Source: Nitrosococcus oceani ATCC 19707 (GTDB taxonomy: Bacteria; Pseudomonadota; Gammaproteobacteria; Nitrosococcales; Nitrosococcaceae). Taken from it: DNA of 32,000 nt. Positions 2,865 through 32,000 of this stretch are shown one piece after another (the stretch's first letter is position 1; each line of letters opens with the position of its first letter). Below the pieces are notes generated by a model. That model saw only the letters and a program-made list of their open reading frames with translations, did not search any database and was not told where the DNA came from. The DNA lies in NCBI RefSeq assembly GCF_000012805.1, contig NC_007484.1, forward strand, positions 3,300,001 through 3,332,000. The letters run 5' to 3'. Both the position numbers and the translations under genes were made by a program.

Positions 2865-2933
2865 CTGCCGCACTCATCTAGCTTGGTGAAAGCGAAACAG
2901 GATTCATTGACTTGGCAAGAAAGGAGCAATGGG

Positions 2934-3344
2934 ATGAAATTTCGTACTCTACCGCTAGTACTGGCTATGACCGGCGTGGCCGGCTTTGTCATCGCCGCCG
3001 AAAAGGCGGCAATCGAAGTGTCGCCTCAACCGGCAGGCAGCGAAATTACTGTGGATAGTGTAACCGTCCCGGATGATGGTTTCGTGGTGATTCACGCCAG
3101 CGACGAGCATGGCAATATTATTGCACCACAATCCATTGGCTATTCGGCAGTGAAATCCGGTACCCAAGAAGACGTCAGCGTTAGCCTGGATGAGGAAGTT
3201 GCCTCCGGCGACAAGGTCTTCGTCATGCTGCACGAGGACACCGGCGAGAAAGGTACCTATGAATTCGGCGTCGATAGGACGGATGTGGACGTACCGGTGA
3301 TCCAGGATGGTAAGCCGGTTATCGCGCCCATGGATATTGAATAA
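2934..3344 (+). CDS. Secreted DUF7282-like protein
   Basis: ORF 2883..3344. Met at 2934 is preceded by AGGAG and gives signal peptide MKFRTLPLVLAMTGVAGFVIAAE. Core VTVPDDGFVVIH....G..I..SIGYS.V..G...DV.V.L...V..GD..F.MLH.DTG..G.YEF resembles DUF7282. Confidence 0.55.
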   Translation: MKFRTLPLVLAMTGVAGFVIAAEKAAIEVSPQPAGSEITVDSVTVPDDGFVVIHASDEHGNIIAPQSIGYSAVKSGTQEDVSVSLDEEVASGDKVFVMLHEDTGEKGTYEFGVDRTDVDVPVIQDGKPVIAPMDIE

Positions 3345-3697
3345 GCTTAGGCTTACATACCCGTTTTATAGCAAGGCCGCCCGATAGGAGTGGCCTCGCT
3401 ATGGAGCAGCGTTGATTATCTGCAACCCAACTGGCGGGAAGCCGTCGGACAGATCGGTGAAGGAATCGGCGGTTCACCTGTACCTTCAGGATAACAAAGC
3501 CTATAAAGATAGATCCCACCTCATGTAACATCACAATGGGACTGAAATGTCCCTACATTGTTGCTCATGAAACCATAAATTCGGTATCCAGTCTCCCTTG
3601 GTTGTTATCCACCGAAGCACCAAAACGCGGCGGAAGCCTTTTACCATGAATTCGCGCTATGATTTTCCCCTTGCCACAAGCGCTGCAACCTATCCTC

Positions 3698-3852
3698 GGG
3701 AGGAGGAGAAGTGATGCCCGTGGAAGGGTGATACCTAATGAGGGCCTTGCGCGGTAAATCGTGGCCAGCCAAAGCACCCGTTGAAGCGCGAATTTGTCAG
3801 ACGGATAAAATTTTGTGCCCACAAAATTGCTATCAGTCATGGCGAAACTCTA
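3698..3852 (-). repeat. ~155-bp repeat family X, copy 1; the adjacent 3671-3699 matches the leader 5' of the RayT remnant
   Basis: Aligns with 7244..7399 (shared GAGTTTCGCCATGACTGAT...GAATTCGCGCTTCAA..GGCTGGCCACGA..AAGGCCCTC..GGTATCACCC..CATCACTTC.CCTCCT on the minus strand). Conserved hairpin 3809-3828 has a different loop in the other copy. Indels break any common reading frame. Confidence 0.6.
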
Positions 3853-3946
3853 AATAGTGAAGGACTCTCTCAACAAGCCCTCACTCCTGACTCAACCTCA
3901 ATTTATTCTCCTGGATAAAAACCAAATAGTTATCCAGGATTGATGT

Positions 3947-4015: not shown

Positions 4016-5686
<1,671 letters not shown>

Positions 5687-6887: not shown

Positions 6888-6963
6888 GGCCAGGTAGCTC
6901 AGTCGGTAGAGCAGGGGACTGAAAATCCCCGTGTCGGCAGTTCGATTCTGTCCCTGGCCACCA
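6888..6963 (+). tRNA. tRNA-Phe (anticodon GAA), CCA encoded
   Basis: GGCCAGGTAGCTCAGTCGGTAGAGCAGGGGACTGAAAATCCCCGTGTCGGCAGTTCGATTCTGTCCCTGGCCACCA. Folds by eye into a cloverleaf: 7-bp acceptor GGCCAGG/CCTGGCC, anticodon loop CT-GAA-AA, T-loop GTTCGATTC. Confidence 0.95.
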
Positions 6964-7243: not shown

Positions 7244-7399
7244 CGGTAGGAGGGGAAGTGATGCGCGTGGAGGGTGATACCCAACCGAGGGCCTTGAGCG
7301 CTAAGTCGTGGCCAGCCCAAGACACCCATTGAAGCGCGAATTCTCCAGGCTGATGAGGTTTTGTAGGAACAAAATCGACATCAGTCATGGCGAAACTCC
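7244..7399 (-). repeat. Repeat family X, copy 2 (immediately 3' of the RayT remnant on the minus strand)
   Basis: Aligns with 3698..3852. Hairpin 7358-7375 (GTTTTGT-agga-ACAAAAT) matches the copy-1 hairpin with the stem conserved and the loop changed. Confidence 0.6.
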
Positions 7400-7552
7400 A
7401 AATTCATGCACCAGCTCGATGATCTTGGCCCCCAGGGCGTGCCAGAGCAGCTTGCCATGACCGCTCTCGGCGGCTTCACGGATTCATAGACCTGGGTGAG
7501 CCATTTGTAATCCCTAGCATCGATATAGCCACGCAGCAAGGTGGCCGCGCCC

Positions 7553-8894: not shown

Positions 8895-9560
8895 TCACTT
8901 TTTGGCCTCCCAAAATGTCAGTAAGTTGAACCACCGCCCCACTGCCTGGACCTCATAGAAGCCCGCGGCAGCCAAATAATCTGGAATTTCCCCGCGAATA
9001 TGGGCAACGAGGGCAGGCATGAATAATTGGGGCCATACGCCTAACCACCATAGGGGGTGGCCCGGCCGGTCAAAATCCACTGCTAGCAAGCGTCCGCCCG
9101 GCTTGAGCACACGATGGATTTCTTCTAATCCCTGCCGTTTCAATTCCGCCGGCAAATGATGCAACATTAAGCTGGATAGCACCACATCAAAAGTTTCGTT
9201 CCCAAAAGGAAGGCGCTCCACAACGCCCAATTTGAACTCCGCTTGACTCTGGGCGCGGGCCGCCTTTTTCCTTGCCAAGGAAATCATGGGAAGAGAAGGA
9301 TCAACGCCTACCACCTTCCCCGAGGGGCCGCTCTTCTCCGCCGCCAATTGTGTCAGCACGCCGGTCCCGCACCCCACGTCCAAAATTTGCTCGCCAGGGC
9401 TCAATTGGGCATGGCGCAGGGTCTCCCGCCGGAACTTCTTTCTCAGACCGACCAAAGCGCACTCCAAATCATAAATGGGCGCTTGCCATTTGAGCACGGC
9501 CCCCCGAGTTTTAGGGGCCACTTCCCTGCTTGAATTCTCCATAGCATTATTCCTATCCAT
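8895..9560 (-). CDS. Class I SAM-dependent methyltransferase (Methyltransf_11/UbiE-like)
   Basis: 221-aa ORF with motif I ILDVGCGTG and DVVLSSLMLHH...LKPGGRLL. Its first ~33 codons lie inside direct repeat A. Confidence 0.8.
   Translation of the reverse strand: MDRNNAMENSSREVAPKTRGAVLKWQAPIYDLECALVGLRKKFRRETLRHAQLSPGEQILDVGCGTGVLTQLAAEKSGPSGKVVGVDPSLPMISLARKKAARAQSQAEFKLGVVERLPFGNETFDVVLSSLMLHHLPAELKRQGLEEIHRVLKPGGRLLAVDFDRPGHPLWWLGVWPQLFMPALVAHIRGEIPDYLAAAGFYEVQAVGRWFNLLTFWEAKK
9460..9552. repeat. Direct repeat A (93 bp) bounding the RM/HipBA island
   Basis: CACTCC...GGCGCTTG.CATTTGAGCACGGCCCCCCGAGTTTTAGGG.CCACTTCCCTGCTTGAAT.CTCCATAG.AT.ATTC recurs at 17193..17285 with roughly 10% mismatches and one 1-nt indel. 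Confidence 0.85.
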
Positions 9561-15864: not shown

Positions 15865-17113
15865 TAAAGAAGCCTTCGTCTGGATTTGGCTGCCGGAAGA
15901 AACGAAACCCATTGTGGCCGGACGGCTAGAAGCAGACAACGGCCACATTCTGTTTAACTACGGCAAGAGCTATCTGGAGCGTATCGGGGATCAACCGCCT
16001 GCAATTCCAATTTACCAACCCGAGTTGCCGTTGAAGGCCGGAGTATTGCCACTGCCGAAAGGATTGACCATGCCCGGCTGTATTCGAGACGCCTCGCCCG
16101 ATGCCTGGGGGCGGCGCGTGATTATCAATAAGCAATTAGGTCTTAAAGGCGCTGGCACGGATACGGCCGAGCTGGGCGAATTGACCTACCTTCTCGAATC
16201 CGGCTCTGACCGGATCGGCGCGCTCGATTTTCAACGCTCACCATCCGAGTACATATCGCGTACGGCGAGCAACGTCAGCATAGAAGAGCTGATCGAGTCT
16301 GCTGACCGTGTCGAAAAGGGCGTTCCTCTTACGCCGGAACTAGATCAGGCATTATTCCATGGCAGTTCTATCGGCGGCGCTCGGCCAAAGGCTTTGATCC
16401 AAGATCAAGGCAAGAAGTATGTGGCCAAATTTTCATCCAGCACCGATCTCTACAGCATCGTCAAAGCCGAATTTATTGCTATGCGACTAGCGGCATGGGC
16501 TGGACTTAATGTTGCCCCCGTTAAACTGGCTAAGGCAGCAAATAGGGACGTGCTGCTGATTGAGCGATTTGACCGTATTCCGCAAGGCAGCGATTGGTCA
16601 CGCAAGGCTATGGTTTCCGCGCTCACGTTGCTTGGCCTCGATGATATGATGGCCCGTTACGCCAGCTATGAAACGCTGGCCGAAATTATCCGTCATCGTT
16701 TTACCGACCCGAAGAATACACTGAAGGAACTTTTCTCTCGGCTCGTTTTTAATATTCTGTGCGGCAATACCGACGACCACGCGCGAAACCACGCCGCGTT
16801 TTGGAACGGCGAGGCACTGACCCTGACCCCTGCCTATGACATTTGCCCCCAAGGCCGCACGGGCAATGAAGCGTCACAGGCTATGTTGATTGCAGGTAAC
16901 AACAACCTCAGTCAACTGAAAACCTGCCTTGAAACTGCACACAATTTCCTACTCTCCGCGGAAGATGCCCAGGCTATCTTTGGAAATCTGACTGCCGCCA
17001 TCGAACAGCATTGGGATGCCGTCTGTGAAGAAGCCGAATTGAATGAAGTGGATAAGAGGTTCTTGTGGGGACGACAGTTTCTAAACCGCTACGCCACGAT
17101 GAATCTCAACTAA
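15854..17113 (+). CDS. hipA: HipA-family serine/threonine kinase toxin
   Basis: 419-aa ORF. N-terminal coupling domain (VWIW.......VAGRL), GSSIGGARPKA P-loop-like motif, catalytic NTDDHARNHA. Confidence 0.88.
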   Translation: MTSNKEAFVWIWLPEETKPIVAGRLEADNGHILFNYGKSYLERIGDQPPAIPIYQPELPLKAGVLPLPKGLTMPGCIRDASPDAWGRRVIINKQLGLKGAGTDTAELGELTYLLESGSDRIGALDFQRSPSEYISRTASNVSIEELIESADRVEKGVPLTPELDQALFHGSSIGGARPKALIQDQGKKYVAKFSSSTDLYSIVKAEFIAMRLAAWAGLNVAPVKLAKAANRDVLLIERFDRIPQGSDWSRKAMVSALTLLGLDDMMARYASYETLAEIIRHRFTDPKNTLKELFSRLVFNILCGNTDDHARNHAAFWNGEALTLTPAYDICPQGRTGNEASQAMLIAGNNNLSQLKTCLETAHNFLLSAEDAQAIFGNLTAAIEQHWDAVCEEAELNEVDKRFLWGRQFLNRYATMNLN

Positions 17114-17192
17114 TACAAATTGTTCGCCAGCGCTTAATTGGGCATGGGATAAAGTCTCCCATCAGGGTTTCTTCCTCAAACTAACCAAAATA

Positions 17193-17287
17193 CACTCCGC
17201 GTCGTAAAATGGCGCTTGTCATTTGAGCACGGCCCCCCGAGTTTTAGGGACCACTTCCCTGCTTGAATCCTCCATAGAATCATTCAT
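17193..17287 (-). pseudogene. Direct repeat B: decayed duplicate of the methyltransferase 5' end
   Basis: Minus strand reads MNDSMEDSSREVVPKTRGAVLK*QAPFYDAEC, against MDRNNAMENSSREVAPKTRGAVLKWQAPIYDLEC at 9560. It has a TGG to TGA change and a 1-nt deletion. Its ATG at 17287 lies 10 nt after the hemS stop. Confidence 0.8.
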
Positions 17288-17297
17288 GGTTAATAAT

Positions 17298-18341
17298 TTA
17301 TACCGTGTGCAATCGGCTCTCTGCCGGGATTGATTCGCTCTCCAGGGCCCCTAATAAACTCTGCCAAATGGCATCTTCCCCCTGCCCCGGTGGAAACGGG
17401 CTGAATATCTGTAACACATTCTCTCCCGCCCAATTATATAACTCCAGGCAGGCTGGTGTATCCTTGTCTTCCGGTTTACGTACCAACCAGGCGCTGGCAA
17501 TTCCCGTCCTTTGTACGTAAAGGGTAAAATCGGTATCCAGGGCCGCAAGCCAAAGCCCGGTAGACTCCACCTGTTTGACGGTTCCCCCGTGGATTTGCAT
17601 TGCGCCCCCATTATCCACCTGAAAGATTAAAGGTAGCTCGGTTTCCCATAACACTTCCATCAATGCCCGTAAATCGGTTAGGAGCACAGGGGTAGCGAAC
17701 TCACGTCCCGCCAACCTCAAGCCTTGAATTCGGCTCGCCCCAAAGGATCTAAAAAGCGCGGGAAGATCACGAAGATCCTGAAGTTCTCGCCATGCCTCCC
17801 GAAGCCGAGTGACATCAATTACTTCATCGGCCCGGGGGGGCAACCGTGGCACTGGTGCCACTGATTGACGGGGCCGCTGATCGGCGCTGCGATAGCAGGC
17901 GACTAAGTTTTCATAAGCCCTCCAGTCGCTCTCTGCAGTCAGGTAAATCTTATGTACGCTGACGCCATCCCGGTCAAAAAACTGCAAGCTATGACGGACC
18001 CCGTCGTCCCATAATTCTTTGACAGCAAAACCATAGTGCCAGTGATTGAGAAACAAGCGCAGATCAATACCCTCTCCCTGTATCCGCCCTAGGGAATCAA
18101 ATAATTTAACGGCCTGGTACTGGCCGGTCTGTTCGTGCACCGCATGCCGATTACCTGTCACGGCCCTTACTTTGTCTAATTGAGGCAATTCCTTAAGGAG
18201 ATCCCGTAGGCCACATAAACGAGTGACCATTTCCCCACAACAAGCCGCTAGCGTCTCAGCTTCACTGACTTCCCTAGGAATAGTTCTTTGCAAGCAAACC
18301 TTGGGCTTTGTTTGATCATGCGGCCACTGCGTCCTCAGCAT
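17298..18341 (-). CDS. hemS: HemS/ChuS/PhuS-family hemin-degrading / heme-trafficking protein
   Basis: 347-aa ORF of typical family length. LRLFL.HW...FAV.E......SLQFFD..G...HK.YL motif and a two-repeat architecture. Confidence 0.75.
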   Translation of the reverse strand: MLRTQWPHDQTKPKVCLQRTIPREVSEAETLAACCGEMVTRLCGLRDLLKELPQLDKVRAVTGNRHAVHEQTGQYQAVKLFDSLGRIQGEGIDLRLFLNHWHYGFAVKELWDDGVRHSLQFFDRDGVSVHKIYLTAESDWRAYENLVACYRSADQRPRQSVAPVPRLPPRADEVIDVTRLREAWRELQDLRDLPALFRSFGASRIQGLRLAGREFATPVLLTDLRALMEVLWETELPLIFQVDNGGAMQIHGGTVKQVESTGLWLAALDTDFTLYVQRTGIASAWLVRKPEDKDTPACLELYNWAGENVLQIFSPFPPGQGEDAIWQSLLGALESESIPAESRLHTV

Positions 18342-26814: not shown

Positions 26815-27924
26815 TTAGCCGCCACCACCGGGATAAGCGGGGATGGATGGCAAACTCGGCTGAACGTCCATATTTTGGGCGCGGTGGCGCAGCAGATGGT
26901 CCATCAACACCAAGGCAGCCATGGCTTCGGCAATAGGCGTTGCCCGAATGCCAACACAAGGATCATGGCGGCCCGTGGTAACGACTTCCGCAGACTCGCC
27001 CCGGCAGTTAATGGTACGCTCGGGTAAGCGGAGGCTGGAAGTGGGTTTTAGCGCAATGCTAGCAAGAATATCCTGCCCCGTGGAAATCCCCCCCAAGACA
27101 CCGCCCGCATGGTTACTGAGGAAACCTTCCGGGGTAAGGGGGTCGCGATGGTCAGTACCCTTTTGGGTCACTGCGGCGAAACCAACACCGATTTCCACGC
27201 CCTTAACGGCGTTAATGCTCATAAGGGCATGGGCCAAATCCGCATCGAGGCGATCAAAGACCGGCTCGCCCAGACCGGGAGGGACTCCGGTAGCCACCAC
27301 GTTAATCCGGGCGCCAATGGAATCGCCTTCTTTCCGGAGAGCGTCCATATAGGCTTCAAGTTCAGATATTTTATCCGGGTCCGGGCAGAAAAAGGGATTT
27401 TTCTCCACGATTTCCCAGTCGAATCGTTCAGCCCGAATGGGGCCAAGCTGAGCCAGATACCCCCGAATTTTTACGCCATGCCGCTCTGCCAGGTATTTCT
27501 TGGCGATAGCGCCCGCAGCTACCCGCATGGCCGTCTCCCGGGCCGAGGAACGCCCCCCTCCCCGGTAATCCCGCAGGCCATATTTTTGCAAATAAGTATA
27601 GTCTGCATGGCCGGGCCGGATTTGCTCCTTGATTTTATCGTAATCCCGGGAGCGTTGATCGACATTTTCAATTAACAAACCGATGGGAGTGCCGGTGGTT
27701 TTTCCCTCGAACACCCCGGAGAGGATCTGGACCTGATCCGGTTCCCGGCGCTGGGTAGTATGACGGGATTTACCGGGCCGGCGCCGATCCAGGTCAATTT
27801 GAATATCCGTCTCGCATAAAGCCAAGCCCGGGGGGCAGCCATCTACAATACAGCCCAACGCCGGCCCGTGGCTTTCGCCAAAGGTGGTAACAGTAAAAAG
27901 TTTGCCAAGAGTATTGCCAGACAT
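26815..27924 (-). CDS. aroC: Chorismate synthase
   Basis: 369-aa [34 protein letters not shown]...RRPG.S...T.R.E.D. Confidence 0.96.
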
Positions 27925-27982: not shown

Positions 27983-28051
27983 GCCCAAGCTCAGTTGCCG
28001 CCAGAGGGGCGCCAGCGACATAGGCGGGTCAACTGCAGCAATCTATTGGGC
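27983..28051 (-). other. attC-like site 1 (terminal, degenerate)
   Basis: Minus strand GCCCAAT...CTTGGGC. Internal imperfect stem CAGTTGCCGCC / GGCGGGTCAACTG. Shares GGCGG.TCA.CTGCAGCAA with site 7. Confidence 0.5.
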
Positions 28052-28055
28052 ACCC

Positions 28056-28313
28056 TTATTTCCAGGAAAGATCGGGCTCCCGACCAGCAGCCATGCAATC
28101 TCGAAGATACAGATTGATTAAGCTTTGATCAAGAACGCGTGAGTGGTCGCTCAGTCCAAGCAGAATAAAACGCTCCTCAGACTCCGAGTGGTCCTCATCA
28201 AAAAACTGGCGCGCGTATTCGTCATAGAATACAGATTTCGCCTCTTCGAACAAGATCCCGTGCTTCTTAACGTTAGACTGCGCCTTAGCGATGCCCCATT
28301 CGAATTCGATCAT
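28056..28313 (-). CDS. BrnT/DUF497-family toxin homologue with divergent C-terminus, no brnA partner
   Basis: MIEFEWGIAKAQSNVKKHGILFEEAKSVFYDEYA....D..HS..EERF.LLG fits BrnT. The last ~24 residues do not show the expected V.V.T.R...IRIISARKA segment in any frame. Confidence 0.55.
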   Translation of the reverse strand: MIEFEWGIAKAQSNVKKHGILFEEAKSVFYDEYARQFFDEDHSESEERFILLGLSDHSRVLDQSLINLYLRDCMAAGREPDLSWK

Positions 28314-28353
28314 ACATACATTGTATGCCGATCCAGCAATAGGTCAATATGAC

Positions 28354-28415
28354 GCCCAACGACCAAGCTCAGCGACCGAAAGCTGCGGGGGGAACTCATA
28401 TACGCCTTGTTAGGC
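28354..28415 (-). other. attC-like site 2
   Basis: Minus strand GCCTAAC...GTTGGGC (62 bp). The TAA of the upstream ORF lies inside GCC-TAA-C. Confidence 0.6.
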
Positions 28416-29186
28416 AGGTAGCGCGTCATGCTTTCCGTTCCATTTCGTCACCAACACGGCAATTGTTAGGCAGCCAGCAGAGGCAAGCAAGTGCTTCAGC
28501 GTATGGCCACTCAGATTTTCGCCAAGCAGTTGGAAGATTTCAGCATCATAATACTCGACTACTTTCGCCAATACATAGAAACCAAGAGCGATCAGCAGGA
28601 GTCCATTTTGCTCAAAGCGCGACCGGTATAGCGTGAGCAGCATTGCAATCATCGCAAGGGGCATGAACTGCACCCAGGCATAGAATCTCAGGTCATCCAT
28701 GAGATGCCAGTAAACCACTGAACACGCCCCAATCAGAATGGCGGGATAAAGAAGTCTTTGAACTAGGCGCCGATCAAGGTACTCGCCGAGGAGCGCGACG
28801 AACAAACCCATGAAACCAACTGTCATCGGGAGTCTGTCCCATACCAGCGTATCGTTGTCAGGAGCCCAGTGATAATATGCAGACCCGACACCAACAAACG
28901 ATACAGCAATGAAAAACGCCAGCCAGGCAGGCAGGACGTCCCTGGGCAAGCGCCCCAACGATGCACGCACACCAAAGATACCTATCAAGACGAAGGGCAG
29001 ATTCGATACGACATCGAAGAAATTGGGAATGCCCAAGAATGACCGGCGATCGACGAAGGCATGGTACGCCAGATCCTGAGGGATTGGAGCGAGCAAAAAC
29101 ATCAACCCAATGGTGCTGAGGAAGAATCCAAGAAGGATGGCTAGGCGCCAACCGGTTGCGCCAACGCTCGAAGAATTAGTTTCCAT
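28410..29186 (-). CDS. Ceramidase-like polytopic membrane protein (alkaline ceramidase/phytoceramidase superfamily-like)
   Basis: 258-aa ORF, about 7 TM helices, with YH.F.D.R...GIPNF..V.SN..F, GS.YYHW.P.N..L.WDRLPM, SGH.LKHL motifs that I associate with bacterial ceramidase-domain proteins. Confidence 0.5.
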   Translation of the reverse strand: METNSSSVGATGWRLAILLGFFLSTIGLMFLLAPIPQDLAYHAFVDRRSFLGIPNFFDVVSNLPFVLIGIFGVRASLGRLPRDVLPAWLAFFIAVSFVGVGSAYYHWAPDNDTLVWDRLPMTVGFMGLFVALLGEYLDRRLVQRLLYPAILIGACSVVYWHLMDDLRFYAWVQFMPLAMIAMLLTLYRSRFEQNGLLLIALGFYVLAKVVEYYDAEIFQLLGENLSGHTLKHLLASAGCLTIAVLVTKWNGKHDALPA

Positions 29187-29201
29187 GGGGCCCGTAACTC
29201 T

Positions 29202-29267
29202 GCCTAACGACTAGGCATGAGGGGCCGCGACTGAAAGGAGCGGTCCCACTCCATGCCCTTATTAGGC
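29202..29267 (-). other. attC-like site 3
   Basis: Minus strand GCCTAAT aagggcatggagtggga...tcccctcatgcctagtc GTTAGGC. The arms are clearly complementary (TAGGCATGAGGGG / CCCACTCCATGCCC). Confidence 0.75.
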
Positions 29268-29465
29268 ACTTTGTCTTTTAAGGGTAACCGATAAAGGTTG
29301 TTTTCCTTTTAAAGCACTCACCTTCAACACAGAAAAACCAATAATATTGCCTTGTTCATCGACTTTCTCCATGATCGCATCGTTTTCTGTTTCCTTAAAA
29401 TAACCTTTCTTACGCTCAAAGATAACTTCGAGATAATCTCCCTCTTCATCAAACCAAATAGTTAC
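29262..29465 (-). CDS. DUF2283-family protein (putative antitoxin), no canonical start codon
   Basis: Found by my own translation; absent from the ORF track. VTIWFDEEGDYLEVIFERKKGYFKETENDAIMEKVDEQGNIIGFSVLKVSALKGKQPLSVTLKRQSA* shows the YDEE.D.L.I.F......E......D..G.I.G..IL pattern. Begins at the ATGTAA junction with the upstream gene. Stop lies inside the attC R'' box. Confidence 0.55.
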   Translation of the reverse strand, partial: VTIWFDEEGDYLEVIFERKKGYFKETENDAIMEKVDEQGNIIGFSVLKVSALKGKQPLSVTLKRQSA

Positions 29466-29776
29466 ATCCTTTTCCAGAGAATCTCACCTCGTTTCACGCT
29501 GTCAGTGAAGTAAGCTGTGATGATGAAGTGATCGCTTTCTAAGCTCTTCACCACGATACATAGATATTTCTCTGTCACCGGAGTGGAATGATAAAATTTA
29601 TAAAAGAGTTCAGCCAACGAATATGTCCTAGAGCGCACAACTTTATCAGGACTAGCGAGTGTTTCGCCTACGCGTCGAATCTGCCCTTTCATCTCTGGAT
29701 GAGCAGATTCCAGATGCTGTCGCCTTTCATTAGTTAACCGGATGCTCCTTTTATTAAAATCCTCTAGGACAGCCAT
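29462..29776 (-). CDS. Putative toxin partnered with DUF2283 (DUF4258-like; family uncertain)
   Basis: 104-aa ORF ..IRLTNERRQHLESAHPEM......ETL..PD.V..S......A.LFYKFY......KYLCIVVK....D.FIITAYFTD..K.G. The context (immediately 5' of a DUF2283 ORF) matches known DUF4258/DUF2283 pairs. Confidence 0.5.
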   Translation of the reverse strand: MAVLEDFNKRSIRLTNERRQHLESAHPEMKGQIRRVGETLASPDKVVRSRTYSLAELFYKFYHSTPVTEKYLCIVVKSLESDHFIITAYFTDSVKRGEILWKRM

Positions 29777-29792
29777 ATCAATCGTTCATAGT

Positions 29793-29836
29793 GCCTAACG
29801 CCTGAACTCACGGGCGCGTACAGCGAATTGTTATGG
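29793..29836 (-). other. attC-like site 4 (short, 44 bp)
   Basis: Minus strand CCATAAC aattcgctgtacgcgcccgtgagttcaggc GTTAGGC. The mliC stop is the TAA in CCA-TAA-C. Confidence 0.5.
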
Positions 29837-30196
29837 TGCATCTGCGACCTGCGCACATTGTTGGATTGCTTCGCCCGAGGTGCCACCTTCCAAGTGACGA
29901 AACAGCGTGCCTGATGCGCCTTCTCCGCTGCCTTTTGTCCACCATTCCAGACGCTCGCCTACATAGCGTGCTCCGCTCCCCGAGACCGCGATTTCCATTT
30001 GGAGTCGGCGGTCGTCGTATTCCACGACGGCTGTACTGTCTGTGGGATATGAAACCATGATTGTTTCCCCACTTTCACACTGGTACTTGAAGGACAAGTC
30101 TGCATCGCTGGACTGCTCCGTGGACGCGGTGCCACCAGTCGATGGTTGCCCGCAAGCGGACAGGAAGACAATAAGAACAATAGACAAAAAACGCAT
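29831..30196 (-). CDS. mliC: MliC-family lipoprotein (inhibitor of C-type lysozyme)
   Basis: ORF 29831..30337 trimmed to Met 30196 (GGGAGG upstream). Signal peptide MRFLSIVLIVFLSA/C lipobox, then Y.C..G....V.Y........L......SGSGARY......WW.KG......C as in E. coli MliC. Confidence 0.75.
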   Translation of the reverse strand: MRFLSIVLIVFLSACGQPSTGGTASTEQSSDADLSFKYQCESGETIMVSYPTDSTAVVEYDDRRLQMEIAVSGSGARYVGERLEWWTKGSGEGASGTLFRHLEGGTSGEAIQQCAQVADAP

Positions 30197-30222
30197 GGTA
30201 TTTCTAACCTCCCTAAATTGCG

Positions 30223-30282
30223 GCATAACGTACGAGCTCACCGGGGGCGTGCTAGCGACCCCGGTGCAGCACCAAGTTAGAC
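30223..30282 (-). other. attC-like site 5
   Basis: Minus strand GTCTAAC ttggtgCACCGGGGtcgctagcacgCCCCGGTGagctcgtac GTTATGC, with a central 8-bp stem. Confidence 0.6.
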
Positions 30283-30302
30283 ATCTACTGCTGTGACAGT
30301 GG

Positions 30303-30530
30303 CTACTTGGTGAGTTCAGACACATGCTCTTCCTCATAACGTTCGATTAGCACCCCCACAATCTCCATCAGCGAAGCTAGCGGGTGCGCCTCGTCTTCTC
30401 CGACTTCATCGATCAAACTGTCAAGGAATGAAACCAGCCGCTCATACTCTTCCTCCGTGTGCGGTACGTAGATCATTCTGGCCATCGGTGGCCAAGCGTT
30501 GAGTACCTTGTCAACTTCGATAGTTTGCAT
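30303..30530 (-). CDS. HigA-like antitoxin, N-terminal domain only (HTH domain missing)
   Basis: MQTIEVDKVLNAWPPMARMIYVPHTEEEYERLVSFLDSLIDEVGEDEAHPLASLMEIVGVLIERYEEEH resembles the N-terminal half of COG5499/HigA (YgjM-type) antitoxins. It stops at 75 aa, just before attC site 5. Confidence 0.5.
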   Translation of the reverse strand: MQTIEVDKVLNAWPPMARMIYVPHTEEEYERLVSFLDSLIDEVGEDEAHPLASLMEIVGVLIERYEEEHVSELTK

Positions 30531-30532
30531 AC

Positions 30533-30622
30533 CTACTCCTTCCACTTTCCCTGATTGTACTCCGCGTGTGTAAGCACCGCCCGGATGTAGAGCTTGCGAC
30601 GATTGTAATGAATCGCTGCGAT
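30533..30622 (-). pseudogene. higB: HigB toxin remnant (last 29 codons)
   Basis: My own translation IAAIHYNRRKLYIRAVLTHAEYNQGKWKE* matches the HigB C-terminal signature (..AIHYN....YIR.VLTHAEYDKGKWK). The fragment begins about 10 nt from the GTTAGGC box of attC site 6. Confidence 0.65.
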
Positions 30623-30632
30623 CAGAGGAGCC

Positions 30633-30693
30633 GCCTAACGCCGGGAATCAGCAGCGCGCCGTCAGGCGCGTCCGCTACATTGACTTGTTGGGC
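30633..30693 (-). other. attC-like site 6
   Basis: Minus strand GCCCAAC aagtcaatgtagcgGACGCGCCtgacGGCGCGCtgctgattcccggc GTTAGGC, with a central GC stem. Confidence 0.7.
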
Positions 30694-30776
30694 AATCACT
30701 GCTCCAACATGGATTGGAGTGAGTAAAAAAGGGGGATGGATACCCTCAAAATGGTGCTTTCTCAGCCCTGTGAAAC

Positions 30777-31817
30777 CTATCCGTGACATTCCCACTCAGG
30801 CCGATATTGTCCGGATTTAGCACCATTACCGGTGCACCTGGGTTTCAGGTCAAATTTCGTAAGATCTGCCCAGATCACATTCGGTGCAGTCGTCAATTCA
30901 AAATAGTAGCGCTTAGTGTCGAGATCGGTCACCGTACGGTACTCAGTATTGTAGATACCAAAGCTCTGGTAGGGTGCACCAAATGGCACCGATACGTTGC
31001 GCATAATGGACAGTATAGAAGCGACTTCCTCGCGTTCGTCCTTCGGCTTGGGTAACAATGCCGAGAAATAAGACGCCCGCTGGAAACGATCCGTAGCACT
31101 GACATTGCCGGGTAACGGGGTGTTACTGCTTGGATGCGTGAAATCAACCTCTTTTTTCATCTTCTGCAGCAACGCGAGTTGCTGATCATAGCTTGGATCG
31201 TTGGTCATGACCCGATATTGACGGCCATGATGAATGACCAGCTTGCCGTTAATGTACTCGAGGATAGCAGAATCACCCGTGGCATCTTCCAAGGCCAGGT
31301 GAACCGTGGCCTTGTGTCCGTGCATCTCGACCATCACCGGCTGGATCTTCTTGAGCAGGGGCAATGCTTGATCAACTGTCGCCCCATTGTCCAGTGCATA
31401 CTGCCCCCATAGACCAGCCTGTACACCCGGCTTGCTGGGATCGCGTGGCCCAAAATCCGTATTTTCGAGGTACAGCATGTGAATTGCTAGCCCGGCTTCA
31501 TTAAAGCCGTCAGCGGTGCCAATGCCGTAAACTGGGACCACCATACTGGCATATTTGGATGTCCACTTGGCTGGATTCACCTTGACCGCAGTCTCCGTAC
31601 CGAGGAGGCCCCCATCCCGTTTCATTCCACGTGGAAAGACCACGATCTCCGGCTGGGTAGACTCCGGCCAGTCCATCGTCCTCCCCACCACGACGTTCAG
31701 CCCGCTGTCGTTCCAAAGAACACGCGTACAGGCATCGGCGGCCTGCAAGAAAACAAGTCCCACAACCACGAAAATAGCTGCACTTGCCACGGTTCGGTAA
31801 ATCATCTGTCGGTTCAT
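30777..31817 (-). CDS. Choloylglycine hydrolase / penicillin V acylase-family Ntn-hydrolase (linear amide C-N hydrolase), probable 3' frameshift
   Basis: ORF 30777..31892 trimmed to Met 31817 (AAGGAGG upstream). Signal peptide ends AADA/CTRVLW, giving an N-terminal nucleophile Cys. The family-like C-terminus GAPVMVLNPDNIGLSGNVTDRFHRAEKAPF* is in another frame after the CCC run near 30842, with its stop at 30746. Confidence 0.7.
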   Translation of the reverse strand: MNRQMIYRTVASAAIFVVVGLVFLQAADACTRVLWNDSGLNVVVGRTMDWPESTQPEIVVFPRGMKRDGGLLGTETAVKVNPAKWTSKYASMVVPVYGIGTADGFNEAGLAIHMLYLENTDFGPRDPSKPGVQAGLWGQYALDNGATVDQALPLLKKIQPVMVEMHGHKATVHLALEDATGDSAILEYINGKLVIHHGRQYRVMTNDPSYDQQLALLQKMKKEVDFTHPSSNTPLPGNVSATDRFQRASYFSALLPKPKDEREEVASILSIMRNVSVPFGAPYQSFGIYNTEYRTVTDLDTKRYYFELTTAPNVIWADLTKFDLKPRCTGNGAKSGQYRPEWECHG

Positions 31818-31886
31818 GGTGCACCTCCTTTGGTGAGAAAACGATCGTTGATGACTTCGGCCGGCAGACAGCACCGGTCGTTTGAA

Positions 31887-31958
31887 GCCCAACGCTTGGA
31901 CTCAACTGTCGGCAGCCCGCGTAACGGGTTGGCGGTCAGCTGCAGCAAATTGTTGGAT
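31887..31958 (-). other. attC-like site 7
   Basis: Minus strand ATCCAAC...GTTGGGC (72 bp). Internal imperfect stem TGTCGGCAGCCCG / CGGGTTGGCGGTCA. The following cassette has a 69-nt leader before the RBS. Confidence 0.55.
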
Positions 31959-32000
31959 CTCATATTTTCTGCCACGCTGATTGTTAAATATAGCGAATGC

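Follow-up and report, generated by a model that had tools for sequence, protein, structure and literature searches.

A probable integrase-less integron cassette array upstream of aroC in the chromosome of Nitrosococcus oceani

A gene cassette consists of one or two open reading frames (ORFs) and, after them, an attC site. As single-stranded DNA, the bottom strand of attC folds into an imperfect hairpin, in which an R''/R' stem and an L''/L' stem with extra-helical bases are separated by an unpaired spacer and which ends in a variable tip. The integron integrase IntI recognises this hairpin, and either excises circular cassettes (attC x attC) or inserts cassettes (attC x attI). Sedentary chromosomal integrons are exemplified by the superintegron of Vibrio cholerae and by the Xanthomonas integrons, which are located next to ilvD and have a decayed intI. 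Groups of clustered attC sites without an integron-integrase (CALINs) are common and have already been described, 279 of them in complete genomes (PMC4889954). The locus analysed here is an array of gene cassettes upstream of aroC in the chromosome of Nitrosococcus oceani ATCC 19707, within a stretch of 32,000 nucleotides (NC_007484.1, positions 3,300,001 to 3,332,000), which is termed the window and whose positions are used throughout. This locus is very probably a CALIN fixed in the N. oceani chromosome, and the window holds the distal two-thirds of it. It is given this label because no integrase is located beside the array and its attC sites are clustered, as the definition of PMC4889954 states.

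The array shares with the CALINs of PMC4889954 the possession of two or more attC sites, the absence of intI within 4 or 10 kb, and cassettes mostly of unknown or non-resistance function, as well as a trace of an insertion sequence (IS) at its edge and an intI pseudogene elsewhere on the replicon. It differs from them in that one inverted cassette is located across the IS remnant, and the comparison revealed no further qualitative difference. The largest distance between its attC sites is 1.25 kb, as compared to the 4 kb within which at least two sites of a CALIN should be located, and the sites number seven in the window and about 10 in the whole array. To judge from general knowledge, the array resembles sedentary chromosomal integrons in its fixed position by a housekeeping gene, its vertical inheritance across sister species, its toxin-antitoxin cassettes and its cassette content, which varies between species. 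In contrast to these integrons, it is small, is without an integrase and apparently without attI and Pc, and has heterogeneous attCs (44-96 nt) instead of one species-specific repeat, and its toxin-antitoxin modules are themselves decaying. A sedentary integron is defined by an integrase combined with either an occurrence in every genome of the species or an attC count above 19, whereas the array has about 10 attCs and no integrase.

The preliminary description of this DNA, which was made from the sequence alone, placed seven attC box pairs on the minus strand. All seven are present at the coordinates and with the boxes that it gave, and their lengths are 44-72 bp, as it stated. The scores below are those of the covariance models R1, R2 and R3, which are described afterwards.

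attC site 1, 31887..31958, minus strand: 72 nt; R'' ATCCAAC, R' GTTGGGC; R2 22.1 bits, E 7.6e-3; R3 42.2 bits, E 6.3e-8; hairpin
attC site 2, 30633..30693, minus strand: 61 nt; GCCCAAC..GTTAGGC; R2 27.0 bits, E 4.9e-4; R3 47.7 bits, E 3.1e-9; classic hairpin
attC site 3, 30223..30282, minus strand: 60 nt; GTCTAAC..GTTATGC; R2 23.3 bits; R3 38.7 bits; fold z-score -3.9
attC site 4, 29793..29836, minus strand: 44 nt, very short; CCATAAC..GTTAGGC; R2 26.0 bits, E 8.8e-4; R3 26.9 bits; poor fold alone
attC site 5, 29202..29267, minus strand: 66 nt; GCCTAAT..GTTAGGC; R2 15.5 bits, E 0.32; R3 26.7 bits, E 2.9e-4; fold z-score -3.5
attC site 6, 28354..28415, minus strand: 62 nt; GCCTAAC..GTTGGGC; degenerate; R1 13.1 bits; R3 20.6 bits, E 8.3e-3; no good fold
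attC site 7, the last in the array, 27983..28051, minus strand: 69 nt; R3 36.4 bits, E 1.5e-6; missed by R2

Three of the seven sites agree exactly with the consensus boxes RYYYAAC and GTTRRRY at both ends, and the remaining four have one or two mismatches. All eight strict RYYYAAC..GTTRRRY pairs (40-150 nt apart) are located within 28354-31989, and none in the remaining 28 kb of the window; dinucleotide shuffles give an expectation of 2.4 +/- 1.5 strict pairs per whole window, and about 0.3 per stretch of the size of the array. Further features are common to the seven sites: R'' is followed by a 5-nt spacer, the L'' box has the form GCTGCAGNTGAC or NNTNNAGCGGAC, the L' box terminates in ..TGAG/C, and a 6-7-nt spacer precedes R'. 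These additional conserved features are present in class 1 attCs read from plasmids as well. Sites 1, 3, 4, 6 and 7 belong to an attC subfamily of the form CTGCAG..GAC ... TGAG......CGTTRGGC. The recombinogenic bottom strand of the sites is the plus strand of the window. When the bottom-strand DNA is folded, the R-stem/bulge/L-stem hairpin is obtained for sites 1, 2, 3, 5 and 7 (z-scores of -1.0 to -3.9), but not for sites 4 and 6. At site 7 the box pair GCCCAAT..CTTGGGC described earlier does exist, but alignment with Nitrosococcus watsonii identifies CTTGGGC as the spacer between L' and R', the true R' having been deleted.

Two covariance models, R2 and R3, both built without any Nitrosococcus sequence, were used as stand-ins for the attC model of IntegronFinder; Rfam has no attC family, and only a tRNA was matched by Rfam in the window. 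For R2, class 1 integrons were located in a plasmid collection by their 5'-conserved-segment sequence, and 15 different attCs were read from 10 plasmids, those of qacG2, qnrVC1, a cupin cassette, arr-2, dfrA22, aacA4, dfrA12, gcuF, aadA2, ereA2, dfrA1, aadB, aac(6')-33, dfrA14 and aadA13. The R/L-box ends of these seeds were aligned as bottom strands, each site being trimmed to its two 23-24-nt ends. A MAFFT alignment of full-length class 1 attCs was discarded, because its L'/R' side was misaligned, and model R1, with eight seeds, was discarded as too narrow, because it missed half of the known class 1 attCs. The results given are those of searches with default filters; unfiltered searches lowered or distorted the scores and lost sites. 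Besides recovering the majority of known class 1 attCs, R2 matches in the window only sites 2, 4, 3, 1 and 5 (27.0, 26.0, 23.3, 22.1 and 15.5 bits), four of them at E < 0.01. All five matches are on the plus strand, the bottom strand for cassettes oriented on the minus strand. R3, which was built from 129 environmental (metagenomic) attCs, matches all seven sites at exactly the predicted boundaries and on one strand, with 20.6-47.7 bits and E values of 3e-9 to 8e-3, and matches nothing else in the window. The control DNA consists of 80 aroC loci of other gammaproteobacteria (1.29 Mb), taken from a scan of genome contigs with AroC, and no Nitrosococcus genome is among the matches listed. In this control R2 gives no match at E <= 10 and R3 gives a single partial match of 14.9 bits. 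The test with an attC covariance model that had been proposed together with the preliminary description thus yields, with these stand-ins, the predicted positions, strand and boundaries.

The class 1 attCs (aadA2, aadB, gcuF, cupin and others) have the same architecture as the Nitrosococcus sites, namely RYYYAAC, a 5-nt spacer, an L'' with one extra base and ..GAC, followed by a variable tip, L', a 5-7-nt spacer and GTTRRRY, and a model made from class 1 sites alone (R2) recognises five of the seven window sites. Unlike class 1 integrons, the array is chromosomal, has unrelated cargo with no resistance genes, has no integrase, and includes several degenerate sites. In a plasmid of Klebsiella michiganensis (NZ_CP075883.1, locus L099 6414-8333), a group II intron reverse-transcriptase gene is located in the R'' end of an aadA1-type class 1 attC; targeting of attC is a known habit of group IIC introns.

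The signature of site 1, CTGCAG NN GAC ... TGAG N6 CGTTRGGC, is present in at least 120 metagenome contigs (L103-L222). R2 finds 174 attCs in the first 80 of these contigs (307 kb), and tblastn finds IntI homologues with 46-59% identity to IntI1 on at least 14 of the 120. The attC subfamily of site 1 is judged to belong to genuine integrons, because the contigs with its signature carry both attC arrays and IntI homologues. These environmental integrons resemble the Nitrosococcus locus in the attC subfamily of sites 1, 3, 4, 6 and 7, in their co-oriented arrays, and in having BrnT and HigB cassettes, which are the only relatives of the cassette proteins found by tblastn in the metagenome arrays. 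They differ from it in that many of the contigs keep an IntI gene divergent from the array (L166, for example), whereas the Nitrosococcus locus has none.

Every site is located directly 3' of a co-oriented minus-strand ORF, and the TAA within R'' is the stop codon of three ORFs, those for MliC (site 4), DUF2283 (site 5) and the ceramidase-like protein (site 6), both as initially described. The cassettes in the window, and the gene that bounds them, are as follows.

Cassette 1, 3' end, 31902..32000, minus strand: 86-aa ORF without a Pfam match, which starts beyond the window and has its stop codon inside attC 1
Cassette 2, 30639..31892, minus strand: choloylglycine-hydrolase-family (CBAH) gene 31817..30746; PF02275, E 9e-67
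Cassette 3, 30229..30638, minus strand: higB toxin remnant ~30624..30533 (last ~30 codons) and a 75-aa HigA-like ORF 30530..30303
Cassette 4, 29799..30228, minus strand: MliC-type lipoprotein gene 30196..29831; PF09864, E 4e-18; TAA stop in R''
Cassette 5, 29208..29798, minus strand: two-gene module of a 104-aa ORF 29776..29462 and a DUF2283 ORF 29477..29262
Cassette 6, 28360..29207, minus strand: gene for a 258-aa ceramidase-family membrane protein 29186..28410; PF05875, E 8e-11; TAA stop in R''
Cassette 7, 27983..28359, minus strand: brnT'-'brnA fusion ORF 28313..28056; PF04365 BrnT, E 4e-14
aroC (chorismate synthase), 26815..27924, minus strand: PF01264, E 1e-139; conserved chromosomal gene bounding the distal end of the array

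The distance from the end of the array to the start codon of aroC (27924) is 58 bp, in place of the roughly 60 bp estimated before. The CBAH gene has a +1 frameshift at about 30843-30845, as comparison with the intact copy of a second N. oceani lineage (L088) shows, and is thus a pseudogene in the ATCC 19707 strain. The higB fragment of cassette 3 still matches PF09907 HigB_toxin (E 9e-9). In cassette 5, the DUF2283 ORF (PF10049, E 5e-6) has a non-ATG start and a TAA stop in R'', and the 104-aa ORF possibly encodes a nuclease-type toxin, its match to PBECR2 being weak (E 0.003). In cassette 7 a deletion has removed the toxin gene's 3' end together with the greater part of the antitoxin gene. 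The cargo is enriched in toxin-antitoxin modules, as had been claimed, although of the window's three modules two are wrecked, one to a 30-codon higB tail and the other to a brnT'-'brnA fusion; any stabilising role of these cassettes is putative. A terminator scan across the array gives background level only.

IntI cuts between G and TT of R', so that the TTRRRY after an attC goes with the following cassette, and R'' of a given site should match the R' of the site before it. The sum of complementarity between each R'' and the preceding R' is 55, as compared to 52 for the adjacent R' and 48.6 +/- 1.8 for permuted R' (P = 0.0009; P = 0.005 for the window sites alone). This cassette-phase signal appears to be the footprint of once-circular units. 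The ORFs and attCs alternate in one orientation, with the boundary at G|TT of R'. Past action of IntI on the array is suggested by the attCs, by the cassette phase and by the insertions and deletions of cassettes between species, which are described below.

The window belongs to the N. oceani chromosome: over 15,186 nt its minus strand does not differ from the assembly GCA_000155655.1 (DS995301.1, here L003); the same identity is found with GCA_007990675.1 and with Logan assemblies, and its AroC agrees at 100% identity with the N. oceani protein (ABA59383.1 of ATCC 19707). The plus strand of L003 is the minus strand of the window, and window position p corresponds to L003 position 5925 + (32000 - p). 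The sequence was followed for 5.9 kb past the window in three N. oceani assemblies that are identical. As anticipated, the array continues past base 32000 with further cassettes, by about 2.4-3.7 kb, in the following order.

Upstream unit 1, beyond 32000: the cassette with the 86-aa ORF, entered above as cassette 1
Upstream unit 2, beyond 32000: higB-higA cassette, intact
Upstream unit 3, beyond 32000: two-ORF cassette (86 aa and 187 aa), ending in the long attC L003 4612-4792
Upstream unit 4, beyond 32000: 136-aa membrane-protein ORF with a weak or partial attC
IS5-like remnant, L003 ~2873-3110, within the ~380 bp next upstream: stop-riddled, resembling the N-terminus of an IS5/IS1182-type transposase
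Pyrimidine-dimer DNA glycosylase (Pyr_excise) cassette, L003 2257-2788, ~3.2-3.7 kb beyond 32000, opposite strand

The segments 'b' (L003 4612-4667) and 'c' (4753-4792) were considered as two attCs flanking an ORF-less cassette, and this was rejected, R3 and the sequence indicating one interrupted attC; they were counted as one attC in the cassette-phase test. The tip of this attC contains an 85-bp AT-rich element (L003 4668-4752) with 10-bp terminal inverted repeats (AAATGAGGGT / ACCCTCATTT), which could be a miniature insertion or the remnant of something that targets attC hairpins. The IS5-like remnant occupies the exact place expected for intI and attI, and a perfect 15-bp hairpin (CAAACATACTACGCC ... 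GGCGTAGTATGTTTG, L003 ~3105-3160) is located after it. The Pyr_excise cassette is arranged head-to-head with the main array across this remnant and has its own attC in the opposite orientation (L003 2257-2359; R3 35.7 bits, E 2e-6). An ABC (ATP-binding cassette) transporter gene and a Usp gene follow. The array itself sits between the DNA-glycosylase gene and aroC.

When IntI1 is used as a tblastn query, only noise (E > 6) is obtained in the window, in L003, in L088 and in the N. watsonii C-113 locus (L087). This search detects no IntI homologue in the 27 kb on the aroC side or in the ~5.9 kb beyond base 32000, and no match upstream of aroC (10 kb) in N. watsonii or in two lineages of N. oceani; the gene calls at the loci of both species include none with PF00589. 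By this measure neither intI nor a recognisable pseudogene of it is present within 4 kb of the array, or within the stricter limit of 10 kb. The array is therefore a CALIN in the sense of the preliminary description, which had made that name depend on whether intI follows. A complete integron has an adjacent divergent intI, attI and Pc, and about 380 bp with the IS5-like remnant stand here in the expected position of intI. An intI pseudogene was listed in N. oceani ATCC 19707 between Noc_0079 and Noc_0081 (Nemergut et al. 2008, PMC2426708, Additional file 1). This interval corresponds to ~85.7-86.9 kb of NC_007484. The groES gene beside the groEL gene of the window is Noc_2922, which puts the array and the intI pseudogene roughly 250 locus tags apart, and, to go by the locus tags, the distance between them is probably ~0.25-0.3 Mb.

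All sampled N. oceani assemblies carry the array, and so does N. watsonii, whose locus was reached by way of the cluster of AroC proteins. In N. watsonii the array has the same neighbouring genes on both sides, with gains or losses of cassettes whose junctions are located in attC R' boxes. Its two extra cassettes, one ORF-less and the other with a 432-aa ORF, are inserted exactly at R' of site 5, with the junctions ...GTCG|TTAGGG... and ...AGCG|TTAGGC.... At the upstream end, one cassette with a 404-aa ORF takes the place of the three proximal N. oceani units, and homology resumes at an R' GTTAGGC. These differences do not fit a set of ORFs conserved as core genes in related genomes, the case by which the preliminary description would have been overturned. 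The IS5-like remnant is common to both species (L087 211-967, 90.6% identity). The 404- and 432-aa proteins of the N. watsonii-specific cassettes (L087 1460-2674 and 7137-8435) have no Pfam match, and the 432-aa ORF reads through its own attC.

In N. watsonii higB is full length, and relative to it N. oceani has a 233-bp deletion. Likewise brnT-brnA is present in N. watsonii, and a 242-bp deletion in N. oceani fuses the two genes. The last attC of N. watsonii has a canonical R' GTTGCGC and 72 bp following it, both of which are deleted in N. oceani, and N. watsonii is itself without 72 bp of the Pyr_excise attC. With its truncated higB, its brnT fused to a brnA tail, its frameshifted hydrolase gene, its several degenerate attCs and its lost terminal R', the array in N. 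oceani is decaying. The comparison of the aroC flank suggested earlier was extended to more distant relatives, and these have no array there: in Candidatus Nitrosoglobus terrae and in a contig with 86% AroC identity, a Peptidase_M48 gene is located directly upstream of aroC. Two contigs of metagenome-assembled genomes, labelled 'Halobacteria archaeon' (L020) and 'Klebsiella pneumoniae' (L045), carry a gammaproteobacterial aroC that is 78-79% identical to that of N. oceani, and are probably mis-binned.

Several observations weigh against the interpretation of the locus as a CALIN. R2 and R3 are stand-ins, and the loci on which R3 was trained were chosen by a pattern derived from site 1. The bottom strands of sites 4 and 6 fold poorly, and no model matches a and d, two further candidate sites that lie past the window. 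A promoter scan across the array gives no signal above background. The array is unchanged across the sampled N. oceani assemblies, the L088 lineage being 98.4% identical with the same gene order, and is largely syntenic with that of N. watsonii, with no sign of ongoing cassette turnover. In addition, the insertions and deletions between species end in identical 7-8 bp R' boxes, and microhomology-mediated deletion could yield the same junctions without IntI.

Among the alternatives, a split integron concerns the origin of the CALIN and not its nature. According to this possibility, the array was once contiguous with the intI pseudogene of Noc_0079-Noc_0081 and was separated from it by a rearrangement, mediated by IS5 for example. 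That such a pseudogene is listed on the same chromosome, roughly 250 locus tags away (PMC2426708), that an IS5-like remnant and an oppositely oriented cassette mark the upstream edge of the array, and that Cury et al. (PMC4889954) include this mechanism among the origins of CALINs all speak for it. The IS remnant, however, matches Pfam only weakly (DUF772, E 0.001, below the curated cut-off), and a split of this kind is regarded as possible but tentative.

Another possible origin is that an integrase encoded elsewhere inserted the cassettes serially upstream of aroC, at a site other than attI, and that none was ever local. CALINs made by IntI at secondary sites are documented (cited in PMC4889954), and the genome once had an intI elsewhere (PMC2426708). 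Nevertheless, at least 10 cassettes in strict head-to-tail order and correct phase are more typical of serial insertion at attI, the proximal end is the part that differs between N. watsonii and N. oceani, in line with insertion at attI, and an IS remnant occupies the place where intI and attI would be. This origin is therefore considered unlikely.

A complete integron with its integrase just past base 32000 is predicted by the orientation of the array, which calls for a plus-strand intI there and does continue there, but the 5.9 kb beyond the window contains cassettes, the IS5-like remnant, the Pyr_excise cassette, the ABC transporter gene and the Usp gene without an IntI1 match (tblastn, E > 6), so that this possibility is refuted for the 10 kb upstream of aroC and retains hardly any probability. 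It is just as improbable that the sites have no relation to integrons and are common intergenic palindromes (terminators, for instance, or repeats of the repetitive extragenic palindromic (REP) type) between conserved core genes. In favour of this are the fixation of the genes in N. oceani, their mostly conserved synteny in N. watsonii and the weak folding of several sites. Against it, attC models of foreign origin match just these sites and give 0 (R2) and 1 weak match (R3) in the 1.29 Mb control; the scan for terminators yields background only, the signal of cassette phase is significant, attCs of the same type adjoin IntI genes in metagenomes, and no array is located upstream of aroC in Nitrosoglobus and other relatives.

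The locus is thus best explained as an integrase-less cassette array. Such an array would be inert in cis and unable to shuffle its own cassettes, because no intI, and apparently no attI or Pc promoter, is located beside it, and would be mobilised only by IntI supplied in trans; its genes would be expressed only from cassette-internal promoters or by read-through. It most likely originated from a chromosomal integron that was active in the common ancestor of N. oceani and N. watsonii, whose integrase was then lost or separated, with the IS5-like remnant now in the place of intI, and it is now eroding through deletion and frameshift. Candidate routes of integrase loss are an IS-linked deletion in situ, a rearrangement away from the Noc_0080 intI, and insertion at a secondary site. 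The loss would predate the split of the two species, because the IS5-like remnant is common to both. Movement of cassettes after the loss is hinted at, because this remnant is common while the cassette content differs between the species. That the array was remodelled by an integrase acting in trans after the loss of its own is nonetheless rather unlikely; the candidates for this integrase would be the now-pseudogenised intI near Noc_0080 and a transient mobile integron. Differential loss by microhomology between R' boxes may be an alternative source of the cassette differences between the species.

The window contains other repeated sequences at a distance from the array. A 169-nt direct repeat with 80% identity is present at 9384-9552 and 17117-17285, 7.7 kb apart; one copy is located in a 221-aa ORF (8895-9560), and the other just downstream of a hipA-like ORF (which ends at 17113), abutting a hemS/chuX-like ORF (17298-18341). 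Two dispersed intergenic repeats, one of ~160 nt with 78% identity (3697-3855 and 7244-7403) and the other of 80 nt with 86% identity (2216-2295 and 2777-2856), are located near groEL and a tRNA gene (6888-6960).

The importance of the finding is modest. The array adds an example to the known CALIN class and does not represent a new type of system. With it, an integrase-less cassette array of fairly large size is documented from a marine ammonia oxidiser that is an obligate chemolithoautotroph; the literature searched contains no description of this array, and lists only the intI pseudogene elsewhere in the genome (2008, PMC2426708). For annotation, it accounts for a series of small and partly broken genes, called 'hypothetical', upstream of aroC. 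If the array was remodelled in trans, an integrase so supplied would have kept shuffling a CALIN in nature, which has been proposed before and rarely documented, and the head-to-head arrangement with the inverted Pyr_excise cassette on the far side of the IS remnant would be the trace of the rearrangement by which the array was orphaned. The pair of N. oceani and N. watsonii provides a clean natural snapshot of the decay of an orphan array, in which toxin genes are lost first, attCs erode and the terminal R' is deleted, and may also show the gain and loss of cassettes without an integrase in cis.

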